64,000 bases of DNA from Escherichia phage FL15: the sequence record PP400778; one strand, written 5' to 3'. The notes beneath the pieces are model-generated. The model saw nothing but the letters and a program-made list of their open reading frames with translations. It did no database searches and was not told where the DNA came from. Shown piece after piece: positions 16,845-46,385 of this stretch (its first letter is position 1; each line of letters begins with the position of its first letter). The translations under genes were made by a program, and so were the position numbers.

Positions 16845-17627
16845 ATGGCAGTAGTTGGAGTTCCTGGCTGGATTGGAAGTTCAGCCGTAAATGAAACGGG
16901 TCAGCGCTGGATGAGTCAAGCGGCTGGTCAATTAAGATTGGGTGTTCCTTGCTGGATGAGTCAATTTTCAGGTCGCTCGCGAGAAATTATTCACACGCTT
17001 GGCGCAGACCATAACTTCAATGGTCAGTGGTTCCGTGATAGATGCTTTGAGGCAGGTAATGCACCTATAGTGTTTAATATTACCGGTGATTTAGTATCAT
17101 ATTCTAAAGATGTTCCTTTATTCTTCATGTACGGAGATACACCAAATGAATATGTTCAGTTGAATATACATGGCGTAACGATGTATGGTCGTGGCGGGAA
17201 TGGCGGTAGCAATGGTCCTGGATCAGCCGGGGGGCATTGTATTCAAAATGATATTGGTGGGAGACTAAGAATTAATAATGGTGGAGCTATTGCAGGTGGC
17301 GGTGGCGGTGGCGGTGGCGGGTATTATTCTCCTTTTTCACAAATGAGATTAACCTTTGGCGGTGGCGGTGGGCGTCCGTTTGGTGCGCCCGGCGGATCTA
17401 TTGATATGCAATCAGGCGCAACTGCTGGTACTCTTTATGCGCCCGGATCGGGGTCCGTGAACGGTGTCTATAATGGCGGAAGCGGTGGTGAGGTAGGTGC
17501 TGCGGGAGGTAGATGTAATATTCGTGGTCAAGGATCTGAATATAATGGCGGCGATTCTGGATATGCTGTTATAGGGTCTTCTCCAACGTGGCAAAATCGC
17601 GGAGCTATTTACGGACCGGCTGTTTAG
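16845..17627 (+). CDS. 38: T2-type receptor-binding adhesin gp38 (glycine-rich motifs)
   Basis: 260 aa; N-terminus [15 protein letters not shown] and multiple poly-Gly islands separating variable segments are the T2/T6-type gp38 architecture. Confidence 0.85.
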
Positions 17628-37940: not shown

Positions 37941-38969
37941 TTAAAATTTACAATATTTCATAAACCGCATTTTAGCCATCAGACCTTGTACGGTGTTCTC
38001 TTTGATATATTCCATGATCTGGTCGCGTGTAGCGCCCTCGTCCTGAATCATGGCGTTAACGTCTTTAGAATGCCACGGGCAACGGTCCCACAATACAATC
38101 TTTTCCCCTGCATTGATAAACTTTTCCAGTCGGTGCATTGTATCGGCAGACCGTGGTTCCGCATCAAGTACAAACACTCGCTGATCAGGGAAAGGAATTT
38201 CATCTAATCCCAAAGTACCGCCAGTAATTGCACACCCGTTATCAATAAACAATGAATCGATCGGACCTTCTAAGAAATACACTGGCCTACTCGGATCGGC
38301 GCGTTCAAGACCATAGACCTTACTCGCTAACTCATGAGTTTTAATCGTCATATATTTGGTCTTTCCGTAATCCTTTCTCAATGCTCGCCCCTGAATGGAT
38401 TCTATCTTGTTCTCGCGGTTAAAGATAGGAATCACTAAACGCGGTTCAGGTTGTGGATTCTTGAAAGTATCAGCCTTAATGTGATTTGCTACCTTTTGCC
38501 ATTCTCTCGTGAAATACAGAAGATACCATTTATCGTGGGGAATGCAACGATCACTGACATACTTTATTATAGGATGATTAGCCGGAAGAGTATCTAATCT
38601 CTCGCAGAAAGGCAATGTTTGCACTTTCTTAATCTCCGGCTTTTCTACCTTTTTCAGTGGCTTGAACGTGGTGTTCTTGTGGTCGCCTTGTTCCTTCCGT
38701 CGTTCCATAAGCCATTCCCTGAATAGGTCCGGCTTATACTGTTTAAGAAATTCACCTAACGGCTGATTGTAGTTACAGTTGAAACAGCCGCAACGCAAAC
38801 TATCCTTATAGGTATAGATACGGAATCGCGCTTGAGTATGATTTTTCTTTGAGTCACCGCAGATCGGACAACTACAGACCAGCGTAAATGAGCTAGTATG
38901 CAACCGTTTAAAATTTCGTTCGCCGTATATGGCTTTTTCCGCTATTTCATAATCTGCGTAGTAAATCAT
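37941..38969 (-). CDS. 61: DNA primase gp61
   Basis: 342 aa; N-terminal zinc ribbon CSCPICGDSKKN...CGCFNC and TOPRIM-like core; T4 position next to gene 41 region. Confidence 0.9.
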   Translation of the reverse strand: MIYYADYEIAEKAIYGERNFKRLHTSSFTLVCSCPICGDSKKNHTQARFRIYTYKDSLRCGCFNCNYNQPLGEFLKQYKPDLFREWLMERRKEQGDHKNTTFKPLKKVEKPEIKKVQTLPFCERLDTLPANHPIIKYVSDRCIPHDKWYLLYFTREWQKVANHIKADTFKNPQPEPRLVIPIFNRENKIESIQGRALRKDYGKTKYMTIKTHELASKVYGLERADPSRPVYFLEGPIDSLFIDNGCAITGGTLGLDEIPFPDQRVFVLDAEPRSADTMHRLEKFINAGEKIVLWDRCPWHSKDVNAMIQDEGATRDQIMEYIKENTVQGLMAKMRFMKYCKF

Positions 38970-38978
38970 AATAACCTC

Positions 38979-39182
38979 TTATAGCTCAAATTTCATGAAA
39001 GTTCCTACACTTTCATTTTCATTCTCTCCGTTTTCATCTAAGCCAAATTTGTAGACACTACCATCTGGCGATGTGTAAGAGAATACACGAAAACGGCCTA
39101 CCGGATCAAGTTCTGTAAATTCATATTCTTTTCCGGCTTCAAAAAGTGCATATGTGCTTTTAAGACATTTCATCGTAATCAT
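38979..39182 (-). CDS. hypothetical small protein
   Basis: 67-aa ORF; ATG overlaps the upstream stop (ATGA). Confidence 0.5.
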   Translation of the reverse strand: MITMKCLKSTYALFEAGKEYEFTELDPVGRFRVFSYTSPDGSVYKFGLDENGENENESVGTFMKFEL

Positions 39183-39322
39183 TTAAGCGCCACCGATAAC
39201 AGAATGAGAACTACACCAACATACATTGTGATCTCGGATAACTTTTCTGTTTTTGTTTTGTGTCCAGATAATCCGAAAACAACAACACCGATAATAGCGG
39301 ACAGCAAGCCAACGATAAACAT
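39179..39322 (-). CDS. small membrane protein (47 aa, two hydrophobic segments)
   Basis: Below track cutoff; MFIVGLLSAIIGVVVFGLSGHKTKTEKLSEITMYVGVVLILLSVALK; stop overlaps next start (ATGA). Confidence 0.4.
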   Translation of the reverse strand: MFIVGLLSAIIGVVVFGLSGHKTKTEKLSEITMYVGVVLILLSVALK

Positions 39323-39329
39323 GATGATA

Positions 39330-39506
39330 CTAAGCACCGTCTTTCTCCTTTTTGCGTTTTTCTTTACCCGCTACACTAGGTCCACGATTGGTAATAGATC
39401 CGCTCGTTTCACCTGCTGCGATCTTCTCAGGATTGCCGCCAGCATCGCCAGCGGTCATATCTTCTTTGAGTTTATTTTCTTCAACAAACTGTTTAAATCC
39501 AATCAT
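39330..39506 (-). CDS. hypothetical small protein (58 aa)
   Basis: Below track cutoff; ATG overlaps the stop of the 39503-39787 ORF (ATGA); basic C-terminus. Confidence 0.4.
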   Translation of the reverse strand: MIGFKQFVEENKLKEDMTAGDAGGNPEKIAAGETSGSITNRGPSVAGKEKRKKEKDGA

Positions 39507-39787
39507 AGAATAATCTCTTTCAGTAAGTCAACAATCTGGTCTTTCGTCAGTTTATCCTGATCCTCTACAATCTTGATAACACAAGCATTAACATCTTTTC
39601 GAGTCACGCGGGAGATCGTTTTAATACGATGAAACGGTTCGTAGAAATATACTGCTTCATTATAGGTCGCAGCAATTTTTTGACGCATTTGATCTTTATC
39701 GGCCATAAAAACAATTGCAATTTTCGGATCTACACCAGCCACATCATAAAGTTCGGCGACTCCCCAGCGTCCTCCCGGTTCAATCAT
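39503..39787 (-). CDS. hypothetical protein
   Basis: 94-aa ORF; a 30-aa ORF in another frame ends on its ATG, so a frameshifted longer gene cannot be excluded. Confidence 0.45.
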   Translation of the reverse strand: MIEPGGRWGVAELYDVAGVDPKIAIVFMADKDQMRQKIAATYNEAVYFYEPFHRIKTISRVTRKDVNACVIKIVEDQDKLTKDQIVDLLKEIIL

Positions 39788-39906
39788 CCCAGCGTGTTTA
39801 CCGTTAATAAAGATAAGATGTCTCCGTTATTTGCGGTTTTAAATGCTACATCTTCCGGCGTAATCATATTCTTCATAATATCGTCTCCTTAGAGTTTCAT
39901 TATAGA

Positions 39907-40542
39907 TCAAGCGAACGTAGAAAGCAAATGTTTTGTTTCTTTCAGTTGTCGTTCAAGATCTTTGCGTTTCTCTTTAAGTTGCATTTTAGCATTATTTCGC
40001 TGTTTTTCAACATCTTTATCAATATGCTTAGTCCAATTATCAATATCAGAATAAGTTGGCATACCCAATTCTAGACCTAATGCGGTTGGATACAGGGTAA
40101 CAGTCCATAAACCGCTAATCTTCTTAAATAGGTCTGTGTGTAGTGTACTATCTACATCTTCCGGTGTCAACTCTTTTTCTTCTTTCAGTGGTGGGATCTC
40201 GTCATATGGTTCCAGTGCATTTACTTTAATATCAGATACCTCATCAAAGAATCCGCGTACATCCGCAGGAAATACACAAGCAATTTCCCAACCGTGATCA
40301 CGCAGAGAAGTAATATTTTTCACTCCCCCACCATGTGTGATGATTGATGTGACATTGCCATCAAGGTCCACCGAATTTACGAGAAATGGCTTATCGTCTG
40401 TCAGATCATTATAAAACTGTGCTTCGGCTGTAGTCATCTCCAGAAACAGATCTCGGATCGGACGACCATCCGGTGCGTTACCTTCCTTGAGAGTATAAAA
40501 GCGACTTACGATCCATTTTGGCGGTAAAGCATTAGCAATCAT
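39907..40542 (-). CDS. hypothetical protein
   Basis: 211-aa ORF between gene 41 and the small-ORF chain. Confidence 0.5.
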   Translation of the reverse strand: MIANALPPKWIVSRFYTLKEGNAPDGRPIRDLFLEMTTAEAQFYNDLTDDKPFLVNSVDLDGNVTSIITHGGGVKNITSLRDHGWEIACVFPADVRGFFDEVSDIKVNALEPYDEIPPLKEEKELTPEDVDSTLHTDLFKKISGLWTVTLYPTALGLELGMPTYSDIDNWTKHIDKDVEKQRNNAKMQLKEKRKDLERQLKETKHLLSTFA

Positions 40543-40592
40543 GTTATATCTCCTATCAAATCATTCACCAGCGCCCCGCAGGGCGCATTTTA

Positions 40593-42005
40593 TTAGAAAG
40601 TCATGTTATTTGCTAGCTCGTCGAGTTTTTCTCGTTTCTCGGCTTGCTGTGCGCTTTGTGGTTTAACTTGTGCGTTCTCCTGATCTGCGATCTGGTTTGG
40701 TACTTCATACCAACGCTGATTGCCTTTCTTCACACCAACGTTAAACCGTGAATAATAGTTCTTATCACCGTAACGAGACTTGATCTGCTTCATGAGTTGG
40801 ACGCCCATTTTAGCCAGGTCTTCGGTTTCGATAACACCCAACATAAAATCTGCTGTAGCCGGAAGACCTGCTGATTCAGCGGTATCACTCATGTTAAGGT
40901 CGGAAGCATCCCAACCAGCACGGGTAGTCTGTGCCGCAGTCCAACCAACAACATCCCACTTAACAAAAAAACCTCGCAGTTCTTCCGCAATCGCCTTAAC
41001 TAGTGTGTAACTATTTTCAGAGTATACACGCAAGCGAGACGATGCGCAAATCCCCAGATAGTCAACAATCACAACATCAGGTTTAAACTGTTTCTTGAGT
41101 CGCAATTCATTCATTAACGCCTCAAAGTGATTGGAGTTCGCGCCACCAGTCGGATACTGCTTGATCATCAATTTTCCAACCGGACGATCTCCGATCTTCT
41201 TATTCTTAACACGCTTCATACGTGCGGAATATTCCGCAAAAGAAACATTACCATTATCCAATTCATCTAATGTAATGTCAAGCAAGTTTGCGTCGATACG
41301 TTTGGCTACGACATGCTCTGCCATCTCCATTGAGATATACAATACATCATAACCACATTCCATATAATCCGCAGCAAGAGAACACAATCCAAGCGATTTA
41401 CCAACATTTACACCAGCAAGCAACACATTTAGCGTTTTTCTTTCCGCACCTCCTTTCGTGATTTTATTCAACATCGGCAGCTTAAACGGGATCTTATTCG
41501 CCTTAGTCTGATATAGCAAGAATCGTTTTTCAAAGTCATTAAACCAGTCATGACCTACATCAGAATCAAACGTAATGGATAGTGCTTCCTGCATGATCTC
41601 AGGAATAGCACCCTCACTCGGCAATTTCTTATTCTGTTTCTCTTTTGGTAGTTGTGCGTTCGCCTGAATCTCTAGCGCCCGTGACATTGCATTGTACATA
41701 GCACGGTCACGAATAAATTTTTCGGTTTCCTTCATTAACCAATCAAGGTCTTCCGGTGTATTCTCCAGCGAATCGAGAAGAGTTTTAGCCCCTTCATATG
41801 TTGTCTGATTGCCTCTCTCCTTGTCTAAAGCAATCTGTAATGCAGTTGGCGTAGGAATATTGGAATATTCGTCTACGTGCTTTTTAATCAGCTTATAAAT
41901 CAGTTTTTCTTCGTCTTCGGTGAAGTAGTCCGCTTTAAGGTGAGGCCATACATTCGTAAAGAATGCGCCATTGTAAATCAACTGTGAAAAGATAGTTTTA
42001 ATCAT
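40593..42005 (-). CDS. 41: replicative DNA helicase gp41 (DnaB-like)
   Basis: 470 aa; Walker A GVNVGKS, DnaB-type motifs, matches T4 gp41. Confidence 0.95.
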   Translation of the reverse strand: MIKTIFSQLIYNGAFFTNVWPHLKADYFTEDEEKLIYKLIKKHVDEYSNIPTPTALQIALDKERGNQTTYEGAKTLLDSLENTPEDLDWLMKETEKFIRDRAMYNAMSRALEIQANAQLPKEKQNKKLPSEGAIPEIMQEALSITFDSDVGHDWFNDFEKRFLLYQTKANKIPFKLPMLNKITKGGAERKTLNVLLAGVNVGKSLGLCSLAADYMECGYDVLYISMEMAEHVVAKRIDANLLDITLDELDNGNVSFAEYSARMKRVKNKKIGDRPVGKLMIKQYPTGGANSNHFEALMNELRLKKQFKPDVVIVDYLGICASSRLRVYSENSYTLVKAIAEELRGFFVKWDVVGWTAAQTTRAGWDASDLNMSDTAESAGLPATADFMLGVIETEDLAKMGVQLMKQIKSRYGDKNYYSRFNVGVKKGNQRWYEVPNQIADQENAQVKPQSAQQAEKREKLDELANNMTF

Positions 42006-43706: not shown

Positions 43707-46385
43707 TTAAATGTCAAACAGGTCTGTAAGAGATGCCACTTTTTCATATTGCAGCTTTGCAGCCGTGGTAATGTTCTCCAGTGGTTTGACGAAAGTCTTA
43801 TTAAACAACAAAGGCCAGTCTAACCACTTTAACACCTTTGATTCAATTTCTGGAGGAATACGAGTACCGGACAACCAACCAAAACAGATTTCTCCAAACG
43901 GATTTCGATCTTTCAGCGGTACAATCATAACCTTCTCGCCTTCACGAATCGGATCTAGTCCGAATTTTCGAGCATTACGATTATAACACAATACACTCTT
44001 AACCGCATACGGACAACCCTTAATCGGATACCCGTTTGAATCGCTGTATTTCTGTAGGTTGTTTGCAGATGATACCGCAGCAACATCAAGATAGTCAAGT
44101 TTTCTAAATTCTTGCTCAAAAATACCGTAGTATTCCTGCAACGACTCTTCACCTTCCTGCAACATACGGCGAATACATTCTTTCAGTGATTTCTGACATG
44201 CTTTAGGGGTGGAGCTACGTTGCGTTTCCAAGCCCATGATTTTTAGCTTAGGTTCAGCAAAGCGCGTTCCTTCCATATCCCAAACATTAAGAGCATAACG
44301 CTTTTTACCAGTCCAGAATCCACCGATACCCGCAGATTTCAATGGAGGACCAGCAATTGCCTCACGGTCCATAAACATCAAGTGCTCATAGTTGTTCATG
44401 TACTCGCATAACTCGCGATATCCCTTGTCGATAATAGGTTCCATTCGATGTTTACCGAAATTATCAAGGAAGTCAACAAGTTTTTCGGTATCGTCGAAAC
44501 GGTCTTCCCCGCCAACCTTATCAACAACATTGTTAACCAGCACATAAACGGAGTCAGTATCACAATAACGAACATATGCAAAATCGGTTGTTCCACAAAG
44601 CTCGTTTAAGTATTCATTAATCTTACGCTCAATCCACTGAATTGCAAGCTGACCAAACAAGGTGATCGCACTAGCGTTACGGAGATCATAAAAACGGAAT
44701 TTAGGATTCCCCAACGCACCATAAAGGGAGTTGATCAAAACTTTACGAGAAAGCTGGTTTGTATTGCACAAGATCGACTCGTCTTTACATTCTTCCAGCA
44801 ATTTCTCTAAGGCATCTTTACTTAATTCAGAAAGCATCGATTTAAACGCTTCATCAAAGTCGTGACGCACTTCAACGCTATAGTTAATGGTTCCTCCATA
44901 AACATGATTTTCATCGTGTAGAATCGCTTTACAGAGTTCAGCATTGCGATCACATGCCAACATCATGTTTTTGTACTGCTTACGCTGATCGAATACCTTT
45001 TTAATCTCAATCGGTACGATACCGTGAATATCTTTTCTATACATCCATCCGTTAGGCGAGCAAGAATACTCATCACTCGGACGTGGTGCAGTTTTATTGA
45101 TATACTCGTGCATCGGTGCAGCATCAAAAGATCCAGCGATTGTTTCAGGCGAAATATTAACCTGTCGAATAATAGATGGGTACAGACTTGTTAAGTCAAA
45201 GCTCATCATCCAACGGTAAGCATTCGGCACAGGTTCTTTTACGAATGCGCCTGGATACGTCTGCTTAGGCTGTATCTTATTTTCCGGTACTACTTTACCC
45301 TCAGCTTTCAGAGATCCGAAGATAATAGCATCCCACACTTTCATCGGGTTATAAACATGGTTAAATTTAATCTTTGCATAGAAACATAGACTATACACCA
45401 GATCGATAAATCCACGCTTTTTATCAATCGCCAGAACACGATCAACGTCGCCGATGTTATAATCGATGTAAAGTTGATGGTTGTCATCACGCAATTTCTT
45501 TAACGGACCATCATAATCAACCTTACCGATTCCTGTCTCATATTCAGCAACATAATCTAATGCATATGTTGGTTGAGTCGTAAAGCTAAATTTCTTGTAC
45601 AGGTCAATATAATCAAGGCTTTCGATCCCCATGATCGTAAATGCTTCACGCTCGTTGCCAAAATCATCCTGTGAGATTCGGGATTTAATCTTACCGCACG
45701 GGCTTAGACGGTTAGCGGTTCTACTTCCGAACTTATTACTGATACGTTTAATGATATATGGAATATCGAATGTTTCTGTGTTCCAGCCAGTGAAACCAAC
45801 GGGTCGGTTTTCCTCAAAGAATCGGATGTATTCTAACAGCAATTCATCTTCTGTGTCATAGACGTTATAAACAACGCGCTCTACAATATCAGGTCGAAGA
45901 ATAGACTTGCTAGATTCCCAGATTTCACAGTTTTTTCCTTTCAAATCAAATACAAAGAAACGATCATGTACGGAATCATAATGCGTAATTGCATCGATAG
46001 GATATTTCGCTTCTTCTGGTTTAGGAAATTCTGGGGCAGTGACCTCGATATCAACCCATGCTACACGGATTTTATTTCGGTCATATCGAATCTCGCCTTT
46101 ATACGTATCAGACAGATAGGAGATGATAAAATCATCCATCCCTAGCGCCTCTTGCCCCATTTCTCCCATCTTTTTACGCCATTTGTTGGCCTCGTTCATA
46201 GAGGGGAATTTTTTAGCAATGCAAGGCTTGCCATAGATATCTTTATAATTCGTAACCATACCAGGCGCGGCATGATGAAATAAAGTTGGCGTATATTCAA
46301 CGTAACGCTCTTGTTCTTGTCCAGCATCATCAATATAACGCTCGTAGATCTTATCACCTACTCGCTCACATGACAGAAAATACAT
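43707..46385 (-). CDS. 43: DNA polymerase gp43 (family B)
   Basis: Start MYFLSCERVGDKIYERYID (AAGGAG SD); exo and pol motifs (FD.E, YNI.DV, SLYPSII, DTDS, KKRYA) match T4 gp43. Confidence 0.95.
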   Translation of the reverse strand: MYFLSCERVGDKIYERYIDDAGQEQERYVEYTPTLFHHAAPGMVTNYKDIYGKPCIAKKFPSMNEANKWRKKMGEMGQEALGMDDFIISYLSDTYKGEIRYDRNKIRVAWVDIEVTAPEFPKPEEAKYPIDAITHYDSVHDRFFVFDLKGKNCEIWESSKSILRPDIVERVVYNVYDTEDELLLEYIRFFEENRPVGFTGWNTETFDIPYIIKRISNKFGSRTANRLSPCGKIKSRISQDDFGNEREAFTIMGIESLDYIDLYKKFSFTTQPTYALDYVAEYETGIGKVDYDGPLKKLRDDNHQLYIDYNIGDVDRVLAIDKKRGFIDLVYSLCFYAKIKFNHVYNPMKVWDAIIFGSLKAEGKVVPENKIQPKQTYPGAFVKEPVPNAYRWMMSFDLTSLYPSIIRQVNISPETIAGSFDAAPMHEYINKTAPRPSDEYSCSPNGWMYRKDIHGIVPIEIKKVFDQRKQYKNMMLACDRNAELCKAILHDENHVYGGTINYSVEVRHDFDEAFKSMLSELSKDALEKLLEECKDESILCNTNQLSRKVLINSLYGALGNPKFRFYDLRNASAITLFGQLAIQWIERKINEYLNELCGTTDFAYVRYCDTDSVYVLVNNVVDKVGGEDRFDDTEKLVDFLDNFGKHRMEPIIDKGYRELCEYMNNYEHLMFMDREAIAGPPLKSAGIGGFWTGKKRYALNVWDMEGTRFAEPKLKIMGLETQRSSTPKACQKSLKECIRRMLQEGEESLQEYYGIFEQEFRKLDYLDVAAVSSANNLQKYSDSNGYPIKGCPYAVKSVLCYNRNARKFGLDPIREGEKVMIVPLKDRNPFGEICFGWLSGTRIPPEIESKVLKWLDWPLLFNKTFVKPLENITTAAKLQYEKVASLTDLFDI

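Follow-up and report, generated by a model that had tools for sequence, protein, structure and literature searches.

In T4-type phages, the interval between genes 41 and 61 holds five small accessory early genes, which in ECML-134 are dmd/61.5, 61.4, sp/61.3, 61.2 and 61.1. The accessory early genes of these phages are often dispensable in the laboratory, and their gene 60 uses translational bypassing. Likewise, five small accessory early genes occupy the same interval in RB49-like phages (genus Krischvirus, family Straboviridae), 61.1 being the only gene in common. The Krischvirus gene dc2 was considered as a counterpart of T4 61.2 on account of its similar size and position, and was rejected since the two share no similarity; Krischvirus phages moreover have a 52-aa and a 67-aa gene between 61.1 and 61, unlike the T4-type phages. 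Such a slot of lineage-specific small genes matches the picture of variable regions between core genes, these regions having been described in T4-type phages as hyperplastic and as differing between lineages (PMC4122927).

We analysed a stretch of 64,000 nucleotides of Escherichia phage FL15 (sequence record PP400778), hereafter the window. Between genes 41 and 61, a first-pass annotation had described four consecutive short genes of 94, 58, 47 and 67 aa linked by ATGA stop/start overlaps, with a further 30-aa ORF ending on the start codon of the 94-aa gene. The coordinates of the four ORFs are correct (for the 47-aa one, in its ATG reading). We estimate at roughly 0.9 the probability that what lies here is the usual set of accessory genes found in RB49-like (Krischvirus) phages between the helicase and primase genes. 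This block is already known: RB49 (AY343333 / NC_005066) has it annotated, and all Krischvirus records found contain it. The chain of micro-ORFs, as a known and ordinary gene block, matters little in the terms in which it was first described. Two points of the comparison deserve a closer description, namely the state of dc1, which is interrupted in FL15, and the resemblance of gp61.1 to the major capsid protein gp23, the only element of wider interest.

The accessory-gene block of the window

The 1.7 kb around the locus match 58 phage records at 90-99% identity, all from Krischvirus and none identical, and a 20-kb query from the window recovered the same Krischvirus set at 95-99% identity. On this similarity, the window is assigned to an RB49-like coliphage of the genus Krischvirus, family Straboviridae. 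The gene order is common to the annotations of RB49, pEJ01, G37-3, kvi, JSE and GEC-3S and reads, on the minus strand, 41, dc2, dc1, 61.1, two hypothetical genes (a small one, then one of 67 aa), 61 and 56. In RB49 (RB49p017-p021) and JSE (EpJSE_00018-22), order, strand and junctions are the same as in the window, at 96-99% nucleotide identity; dc1 is intact in both, whereas in FL15 it is interrupted by a 1-nt deletion. The features of the interval are, in coding-strand order:

40593..42005, minus strand: gene 41, replicative helicase, 470 aa; upstream border, after the RB49 annotation.
40571..40586, minus strand: G+C-rich hairpin GCGCCC-TGCG-GGGCGC, directly after the gene 41 stop.
39907..40542, minus strand: dc2, Krischvirus-specific hypothetical protein of 211 aa (PHROG 16187, E=1e-147); annotated as Dc2 in RB49 and JSE.
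39899..39927, minus strand: candidate promoter of the sigma-70 type, TTGCTT-N17-TATAAT, upstream of dc1 and across the dc2 stop.
39784..39876, minus strand: 5' fragment of dc1, the 30-aa ORF (PHROG 16174 positions 1-25, E=3e-9).
39818..39819, minus strand: site of the 1-nt deletion in dc1 codon 20/21, from alignments with RB49, pEJ01, G37-3, JSE and kvi.
39503..39787, minus strand: 3' fragment of dc1, the 94-aa ORF (PHROG 16174 positions 31-125, E=1e-57).
39330..39506, minus strand: gp61.1 homologue, 58 aa (PHROG 1823, E=5e-24 over residues 1-56); annotated 'Gp61.1' in RB49.
39179..39337, minus strand: two-helix membrane peptide, 52 aa with a GTG start (PHROG 18360, matched over 1-52 of 52, E=3e-32).
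38979..39182, minus strand: all-beta protein of 67 aa (PHROG 9181; AlphaFold model).
37941..38969, minus strand: gene 61, primase, 342 aa; downstream border, 9 nt after the stop of the 67-aa gene, after the RB49 annotation.

Protein-level conservation among relatives, on which the first-pass annotation had made the reality of its chain depend, is borne out, with dN/dS values of 0.06-0.39 across the genes of the interval and the 58-aa gene occurring in 1440 phage records. The values are 0.06-0.12 for dc2 (window vs RB49 and JSE), 0.12 for the 67-aa gene (window vs JSE), 0.16 for dc1 (JSE vs RB49), 0.30 for the membrane peptide (window vs JSE, with a pS of 0.53) and 0.39 for 61.1 (window vs JSE, on very few changes). 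Owing to these low ratios, to PHROG matches for all of them and to the confident fold predicted for the 67-aa protein, the small ORFs of the interval are regarded, at the level of sequence comparison, as real conserved genes under purifying selection. Pfam and NCBIfam returned nothing above noise for all five proteins, and neither Rfam families nor repeats were found within the interval.

The distribution of these genes is contrasted. The 1440 records retrieved by tblastn with the 58-aa protein belong to T4-type phages of Escherichia, Klebsiella, Aeromonas, Acinetobacter and Vibrio. Dc1 is confined to Krischvirus, as is the membrane peptide (57 records, all Krischvirus), and the 67-aa protein was found in Krischvirus and in 14 siphophages of ~50 kb; in one of the siphophages, IME347 (Drexlerviridae, T1-like), the homologue lies within a cluster of small hypothetical genes. 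A word-indexed protein search lacked the sensitivity needed for queries of 58 and 67 aa. The AlphaFold model of the 67-aa protein is all-beta, with six strands and a pLDDT of 94; its comparison with the PDB gave no significant match (best E=0.49, to weak SH3/Sso7d-like barrels), and its BFVD matches were all uncharacterised proteins of phages. The first ATG of this gene, located inside the ATGA, is supported as its start by GEC-3S, which has ATA at the position of the second ATG; more distant homologues begin at the second Met.

The two ORFs of dc1

The 30-aa and 94-aa ORFs match adjoining parts of the single 125-position profile of PHROG 16174. Together they account for a match over the whole profile (~125 residues) to Krischvirus Dc1, and the uninterrupted frame of 124-129 codons typical of this family is absent from the window. 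The alignment with RB49, pEJ01 and G37-3 contains one gap, at GGAGACA-TCTTATC in the window, where the relatives carry TT; the missing base is one T of this coding-strand TT, between 39818 and 39819. The window carries dc1 in its JSE allele: apart from the missing base, the two sequences agree throughout the first ~320 nt, and once repaired, Dc1 (124 aa) is 99.2% identical to that of JSE. In the 30-aa ORF, Dc1 codons 1-20 precede 10 codons that are out of frame. The 94-aa ORF, previously taken for a gene of its own, corresponds to Dc1 codons 31-124 according to both the profile and the alignments. From these comparisons, the two ORFs are very probably the halves of one 124-aa dc1 gene, split by the loss of one T.

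Conservation is high over the N-terminal 30 residues of Dc1, and the family shows almost no variation at residues 21-30 (LIFINGKHAG). Since the latter are at once conserved and lost, the C-terminal 94-residue fragment is probably non-functional. The shifted frame ends at a TGA which overlaps the in-frame Met31 codon (ATGA, 39784-39787), and the ATGA at the boundary of the two ORFs is a coincidental by-product of this shifted frame. The structure model of Dc1 was poor (pLDDT 47) and unfit for a structure search.

With the repaired Dc1 as a query, tblastn retrieved 58 of 58 Krischvirus records at a coverage of at least 80%, and among the matches listed, all 30 Krischvirus rows, spread down the ranking, correspond to a single unbroken dc1 at 100% coverage. 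The 21 metagenomic Dc1 clusters of a large protein collection are likewise intact, each of 124-129 aa. The sole 94-aa Dc1 entry of the databases (P0022), considered as possible support for a split gene, was discarded as an artefact of gene calling across a scaffold gap of 10 N, the DNA being in frame. The deletion allele was not found in IMG/VR, and a single metagenome match to it (L010) turned out to be a chance 22-mer in an unrelated contig. On the sequences compared, the deletion is specific to FL15 among all the relatives examined. It is also recent, the flanking ~320 nt being identical to those of JSE, whose gene is intact.

Two origins are considered for the deletion: a true mutation, null or hypomorphic, of a gene that the phage can do without, or a miscalled base. 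To a sequencing or assembly error, which would leave dc1 intact in the real virus, we give a substantial chance, somewhat short of even. Apart from the missing base the flanks match JSE exactly, all relatives with a listed alignment have an unbroken dc1, and the conservation of the N-terminal 30 residues implies that their loss should be selected against; conversely, the run at the site is a TT dinucleotide and no long homopolymer, which is not typical of homopolymer errors, and T4-type accessory early genes are often dispensable. A comparison of the whole window with kvi moreover identified a single isolated indel that shifts the frame of a conserved CDS, at 39819, and the lack of a second one in the 64 kb indicates that the assembly is not generally error-ridden. 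For FL15 dc1, the label of frameshifted gene or of pseudogene, or else a recheck of the base, would be preferable to an annotation as two micro-genes. If the deletion is real, FL15 would represent a natural dc1 mutant, usable to probe the role of a conserved gene.

Programmed recoding, either as a -1 frameshift or as a bypass like that of gene 60, with take-off at the GGA that precedes the TGA and landing at a downstream GGA, appears highly improbable as a means of expressing dc1. A bypass could be envisaged from the known bypassing of gene 60 in T4-type phages and from the local sequence, the 30-aa frame ending with GGA-TGA and the dc1 frame having a GGA ~15 nt downstream. To restore the frame, ribosomes would have to shift by -1 within the stretch delimited by the TAA in the C-terminal frame of dc1 and the TGA of the 30-aa ORF. 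However, the coding strand of 39787-39820, read codon by codon (GGA GAC ATC TTA TCT TTA TTA ACG GTA AAC ACG CTG GGA TGA), has no slippery heptamer of the type X XXY YYZ, and the fold of 39750-39830 is no better than those of shuffled sequences (z = -0.42), which gives no indication of a stimulatory RNA structure. No homopolymer able to support transcriptional slippage occurs at the dc1 site, and the two-frame arrangement is absent from the Krischvirus genomes examined (58 records matched at a coverage of at least 80%, the 30 rows listed all being in one piece) and from the 21 protein clusters. The near-identical sequence of JSE is plainly in frame, and the product of a recoding event would still miss the conserved residues 21-30. 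Programmed frameshift and bypass were rejected on the lack of heptamer, structure and conservation of the shift. The frameshift suspected in the first-pass annotation at the junction of the two ORFs therefore exists as a 1-nt deletion and not as programmed recoding, and the dc1 shift is best read as a null mutation of recent date or as an error of sequencing.

Finally, that the two ORFs are genuine, separately evolved micro-genes coupled by ATGA is hardly credible and is ruled out by the shared profile and by the alignments with JSE and the RB49-type sequences: the ATGA does link them and the 94-aa ORF does begin with ATG, but both fall on one protein family profile, no relative examined carries them apart, residues 21-30 of the 30-aa ORF are out of frame and have no homologue, and Met31 has no usable Shine-Dalgarno sequence upstream.

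Start codons, overlaps and transcript signals

The gene downstream of 61.1 had been read as 47 aa, and RB49 also annotates its membrane peptide with this length, from an internal ATG. In the window, this ATG (39179..39322) lies at 39322, 7 nt downstream of the TAG stop of the 58-aa gene (39332..39330), and does not form the ATGA link previously assumed between the two genes; the other ATGA links are present. Read from a GTG at 39337, the gene has 52 aa and overlaps the 61.1 stop by 8 nt (GTGCTTAG, 39330-39337), an AAGGAG Shine-Dalgarno sequence being found within 61.1 with the GTG 7 nt after it. JSE and GEC-3S, whose membrane-peptide allele is diverged (63.5% protein identity), have ATG exactly at the position of this GTG and GTA at that of the internal ATG of the window. 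The PHROG 18360 profile consists of 52 residues, and the match includes residues upstream of the internal ATG. Based on the ATG of JSE and GEC-3S and on the length of the profile, a peptide of 52 aa starting at GTG 39337 is better supported than one of 47 aa, and the comparison favours the same start for RB49. The annotation of the gene, which several GenBank records omit or truncate, should use the GTG. Its description as a two-helix membrane peptide is confirmed, this character being apparent from its successive segments IIMFIVGLLSAIIGVVVFGL, SGHKTKTEKLSE and ITMYVGVVLILLSVAL.

ATGA overlaps are found at three junctions, 39784-39787 (30-aa to 94-aa ORF), 39503-39506 (94-aa to 58-aa ORF) and 39179-39182 (membrane peptide to 67-aa gene), where the plus strand shows TCAT. 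Such overlaps are routine in T4-type phages and no more than this type of genome yields by chance. In the 68 kb of kvi, which are syntenic, 22 of 96 same-strand junctions overlap (among them seven by ATGA, four by 8 nt and four by 1 nt), and a further run of four consecutive overlaps occurs elsewhere. A run of at least three consecutive overlaps arises in 61% of the shuffles of the kvi junction list; together with the proportion of overlapping junctions, this makes the overlap chain ordinary for such genomes.

With its three stop/start overlaps and one 8-nt overlap, the locus resembles the ATGA-coupled operons of phages and bacteria. It differs from them in that downstream genes have their own Shine-Dalgarno sequences and that no sequestering RNA structure was found, the folding of the junction RNAs having revealed no special or occluding structure. 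The Shine-Dalgarno sequences are AGGAG for dc2, AAGGAG for dc1 as for the 52-aa gene, GGTGG for the 67-aa gene and AAGAGG for gene 61, that of 61.1 being weak (AGAG). Stop and start overlap in the potentially coupled pairs at 39503-39506, 39330-39337 and 39179-39182. Co-translation of these packed small genes is plausible from their arrangement, and the presence of a Shine-Dalgarno sequence for each gene, together with the lack of sequestering structure, means that coupling is plausible without being required. In such a model, the genes would follow each other head to tail through an ATGA, the 8-nt overlap, a second ATGA and a 9-nt gap, probably on a single early transcript with ribosomes passing from gene to gene, both coupling and co-transcription being presumed. 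Termination and reinitiation at Met31 could still yield the C-terminal 94 residues of Dc1 and might maintain coupling to 61.1.

Two elements are candidate boundaries of this transcript. The hairpin at 40571-40586 has no T-run on the coding strand, which favours a stem-loop between cistrons over a clear terminator; in the annotation of G37-3, a terminator is predicted at this place. The putative promoter upstream of dc1 is conserved in relatives, and its -35 hexamer has only 3/6 matches to the consensus, which accounts for its absence from the promoter scan.

Resemblance of gp61.1 to gp23

The gene for gp61.1 lies between 41 and 61 both in the window and in the T4-type phage ECML-134, and belongs to an early replication operon, whereas the head genes are located elsewhere. 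The core of the gp61.1 family (PHROG 1823), E-x-M-V/T-A-G-D-x-G-G ... I-A-x-G-x-T/N-S-G ... G-P followed by a basic tail, is present in the window protein, and A19, G20, D21, G24, G32 and G36 are invariant in an alignment of 24 gp61.1 sequences. The 58 residues are arranged as an N-terminus resembling the capsid targeting sequence (CTS), an L-K-E motif, a core resembling the N-fist of gp23 and the basic tail.

Taken alone, the 58-aa protein matches T4 gp23 in the PDB with E=1e-3 over residues 64-101. The profile of 24 gp61.1 members matches gp23 residues 59-101 with E=4.7e-8, the next unrelated match being at 0.28, and the window gp61.1 is identical to RB49 gp23 residues 61-100 at 19 of 39 positions, with a z of about 16 against shuffled sequences. 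The aligned gp23 segment covers the gp21 maturation cut (E65|A66) and the 'N-fist' of mature gp23*, which after expansion contacts four neighbouring subunits (PMC9958956, a recent review). A nearly invariant glutamate of gp61.1 aligns with gp23 E65, and in most members an L or I occurs two residues earlier, as fits a gp21 site. Lineage-specific co-variation of gp61.1 with the gp23 of the same phage was not seen, the scores being similar across the 2x2 comparison. The giant RTX-like proteins which also matched the 58-aa query (P0033 and others) were discarded as a chance likeness to their 'ITIAAGQTSGTV' repeat, and not homology.

The N-terminus of T4-type gp61.1, MKTYKEFIKE, is identical at 8 of 10 positions to MKTYQEFIAE, the CTS of the internal proteins IPI-III. 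The shared residues include positions 4, 7, 8 and 10, of which 4 and 7 have been reported as important for targeting and 8 and 10 for processing (PMC9026906). The window protein starts with MIGFKQFVEE, followed by an extra NKLKE and then DMTAGD, and is a looser match to the CTS than the T4-type protein; it nevertheless has the F4, F7, V8 and E10 that correspond to the CTS pattern of an aromatic residue at 4, F at 7, I or V at 8 and E at 10.

As a tentative and rather unlikely reading of these similarities, gp61.1 could be a free-standing copy of the gp23 segment containing the gp21 site and the N-fist, equipped with a CTS-like leader, and either packaged and cut or acting as an early decoy. 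In the first case, it would enter the prohead and be cut after (L/I)-x-E, leaving a basic peptide of ~43 residues in or on the capsid, where it might fill the empty N-fist sites beside the gp24 vertices or the portal, or else be injected with the DNA. In the second case, it would be an early decoy for a host factor recognising the gp23 segment that adjoins the Gol peptide sensed by Lit. Should either hold, the picture of T4 head assembly or host interaction would gain a small protein of very wide occurrence, its family being known from more than 1400 T4-type phage genomes. In the literature searched, we found no paper linking 61.1 with gp23 or the CTS, or placing gp61.1 in heads. Some GenBank records label 61.1 as 'major capsid (domain-containing) protein', which suggests that annotation pipelines detect its similarity to gp23.

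Similarity of gp61.1 to a segment of the major capsid protein

Three small genes between genes 41 and 61 are considered here:

39330..39506, minus strand: gp61.1 family member, 58 aa (compared with loci L009:1501-1665 and L014:2779-4365 of two comparison records)
39179..39337, minus strand: membrane-peptide gene, with two alleles within Krischvirus
38979..39182, minus strand: gene of a 67-aa all-beta protein, with a homologue at L015:1801-2001 (phage IME347)

The gp61.1 family profile matches residues ~59-101 of gp23, the T4 major capsid protein (E=4.7e-8), and on this sequence comparison the family is considered homologous to that segment, which takes in the site cut by gp21 as well as the N-fist. 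T4-type gp61.1 begins with MKTYKEFIKE, identical at 8/10 positions to the capsid targeting sequence MKTYQEFIAE, and longer relatives of 120-160 aa, grouped in PHROG 2086, carry the same motif C-terminally.

Possible exchange of the neighboring small genes

The membrane-peptide alleles, one found in JSE and GEC-3S and the other in all other Krischvirus, share 63.5% protein identity, and since the DNA on either side is nearly identical between them, the difference looks like a recombinational cassette swap. The peptide is annotated as 47 aa in RB49 and G37-3 and has no annotation in kvi. Homologues of the 67-aa protein (46-58% identical) occur in ~50-kb Enterobacter, Klebsiella, Hafnia and E. 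coli siphophages, including the T1-like Drexlerviridae IME347, the one siphophage fetched, where the gene sits among clustered small hypothetical genes; this distribution suggests that such a gene was exchanged horizontally between unrelated phage families.

A miscalled dc1 and differences with kvi

The 94-aa dc1 of an ENA metagenome scaffold (L004) present in protein databases only imitates the split gene of the window: a 10-N scaffold gap at the dc2/dc1 junction (1640-1660) led the gene caller to fuse dc2 into a longer 246-aa ORF and to start dc1 at Met31.

In kvi, the DNA polymerase gene is interrupted by a ~1.1-kb inserted segment with an ORF (L006:11359-12481), and the gene is split likewise in several relatives listed with “DNA polymerase (x2)”. 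The gene 43 region of the window is continuous at that point (~45183-45192) and thus lacks the kvi insertion. Window positions ~17320-17490, within a gp38-like receptor-recognition gene of the distal tail-fibre region, are strongly diverged from kvi (L005:19775-19935), with many indels, consistent with a hypervariable host-range segment.
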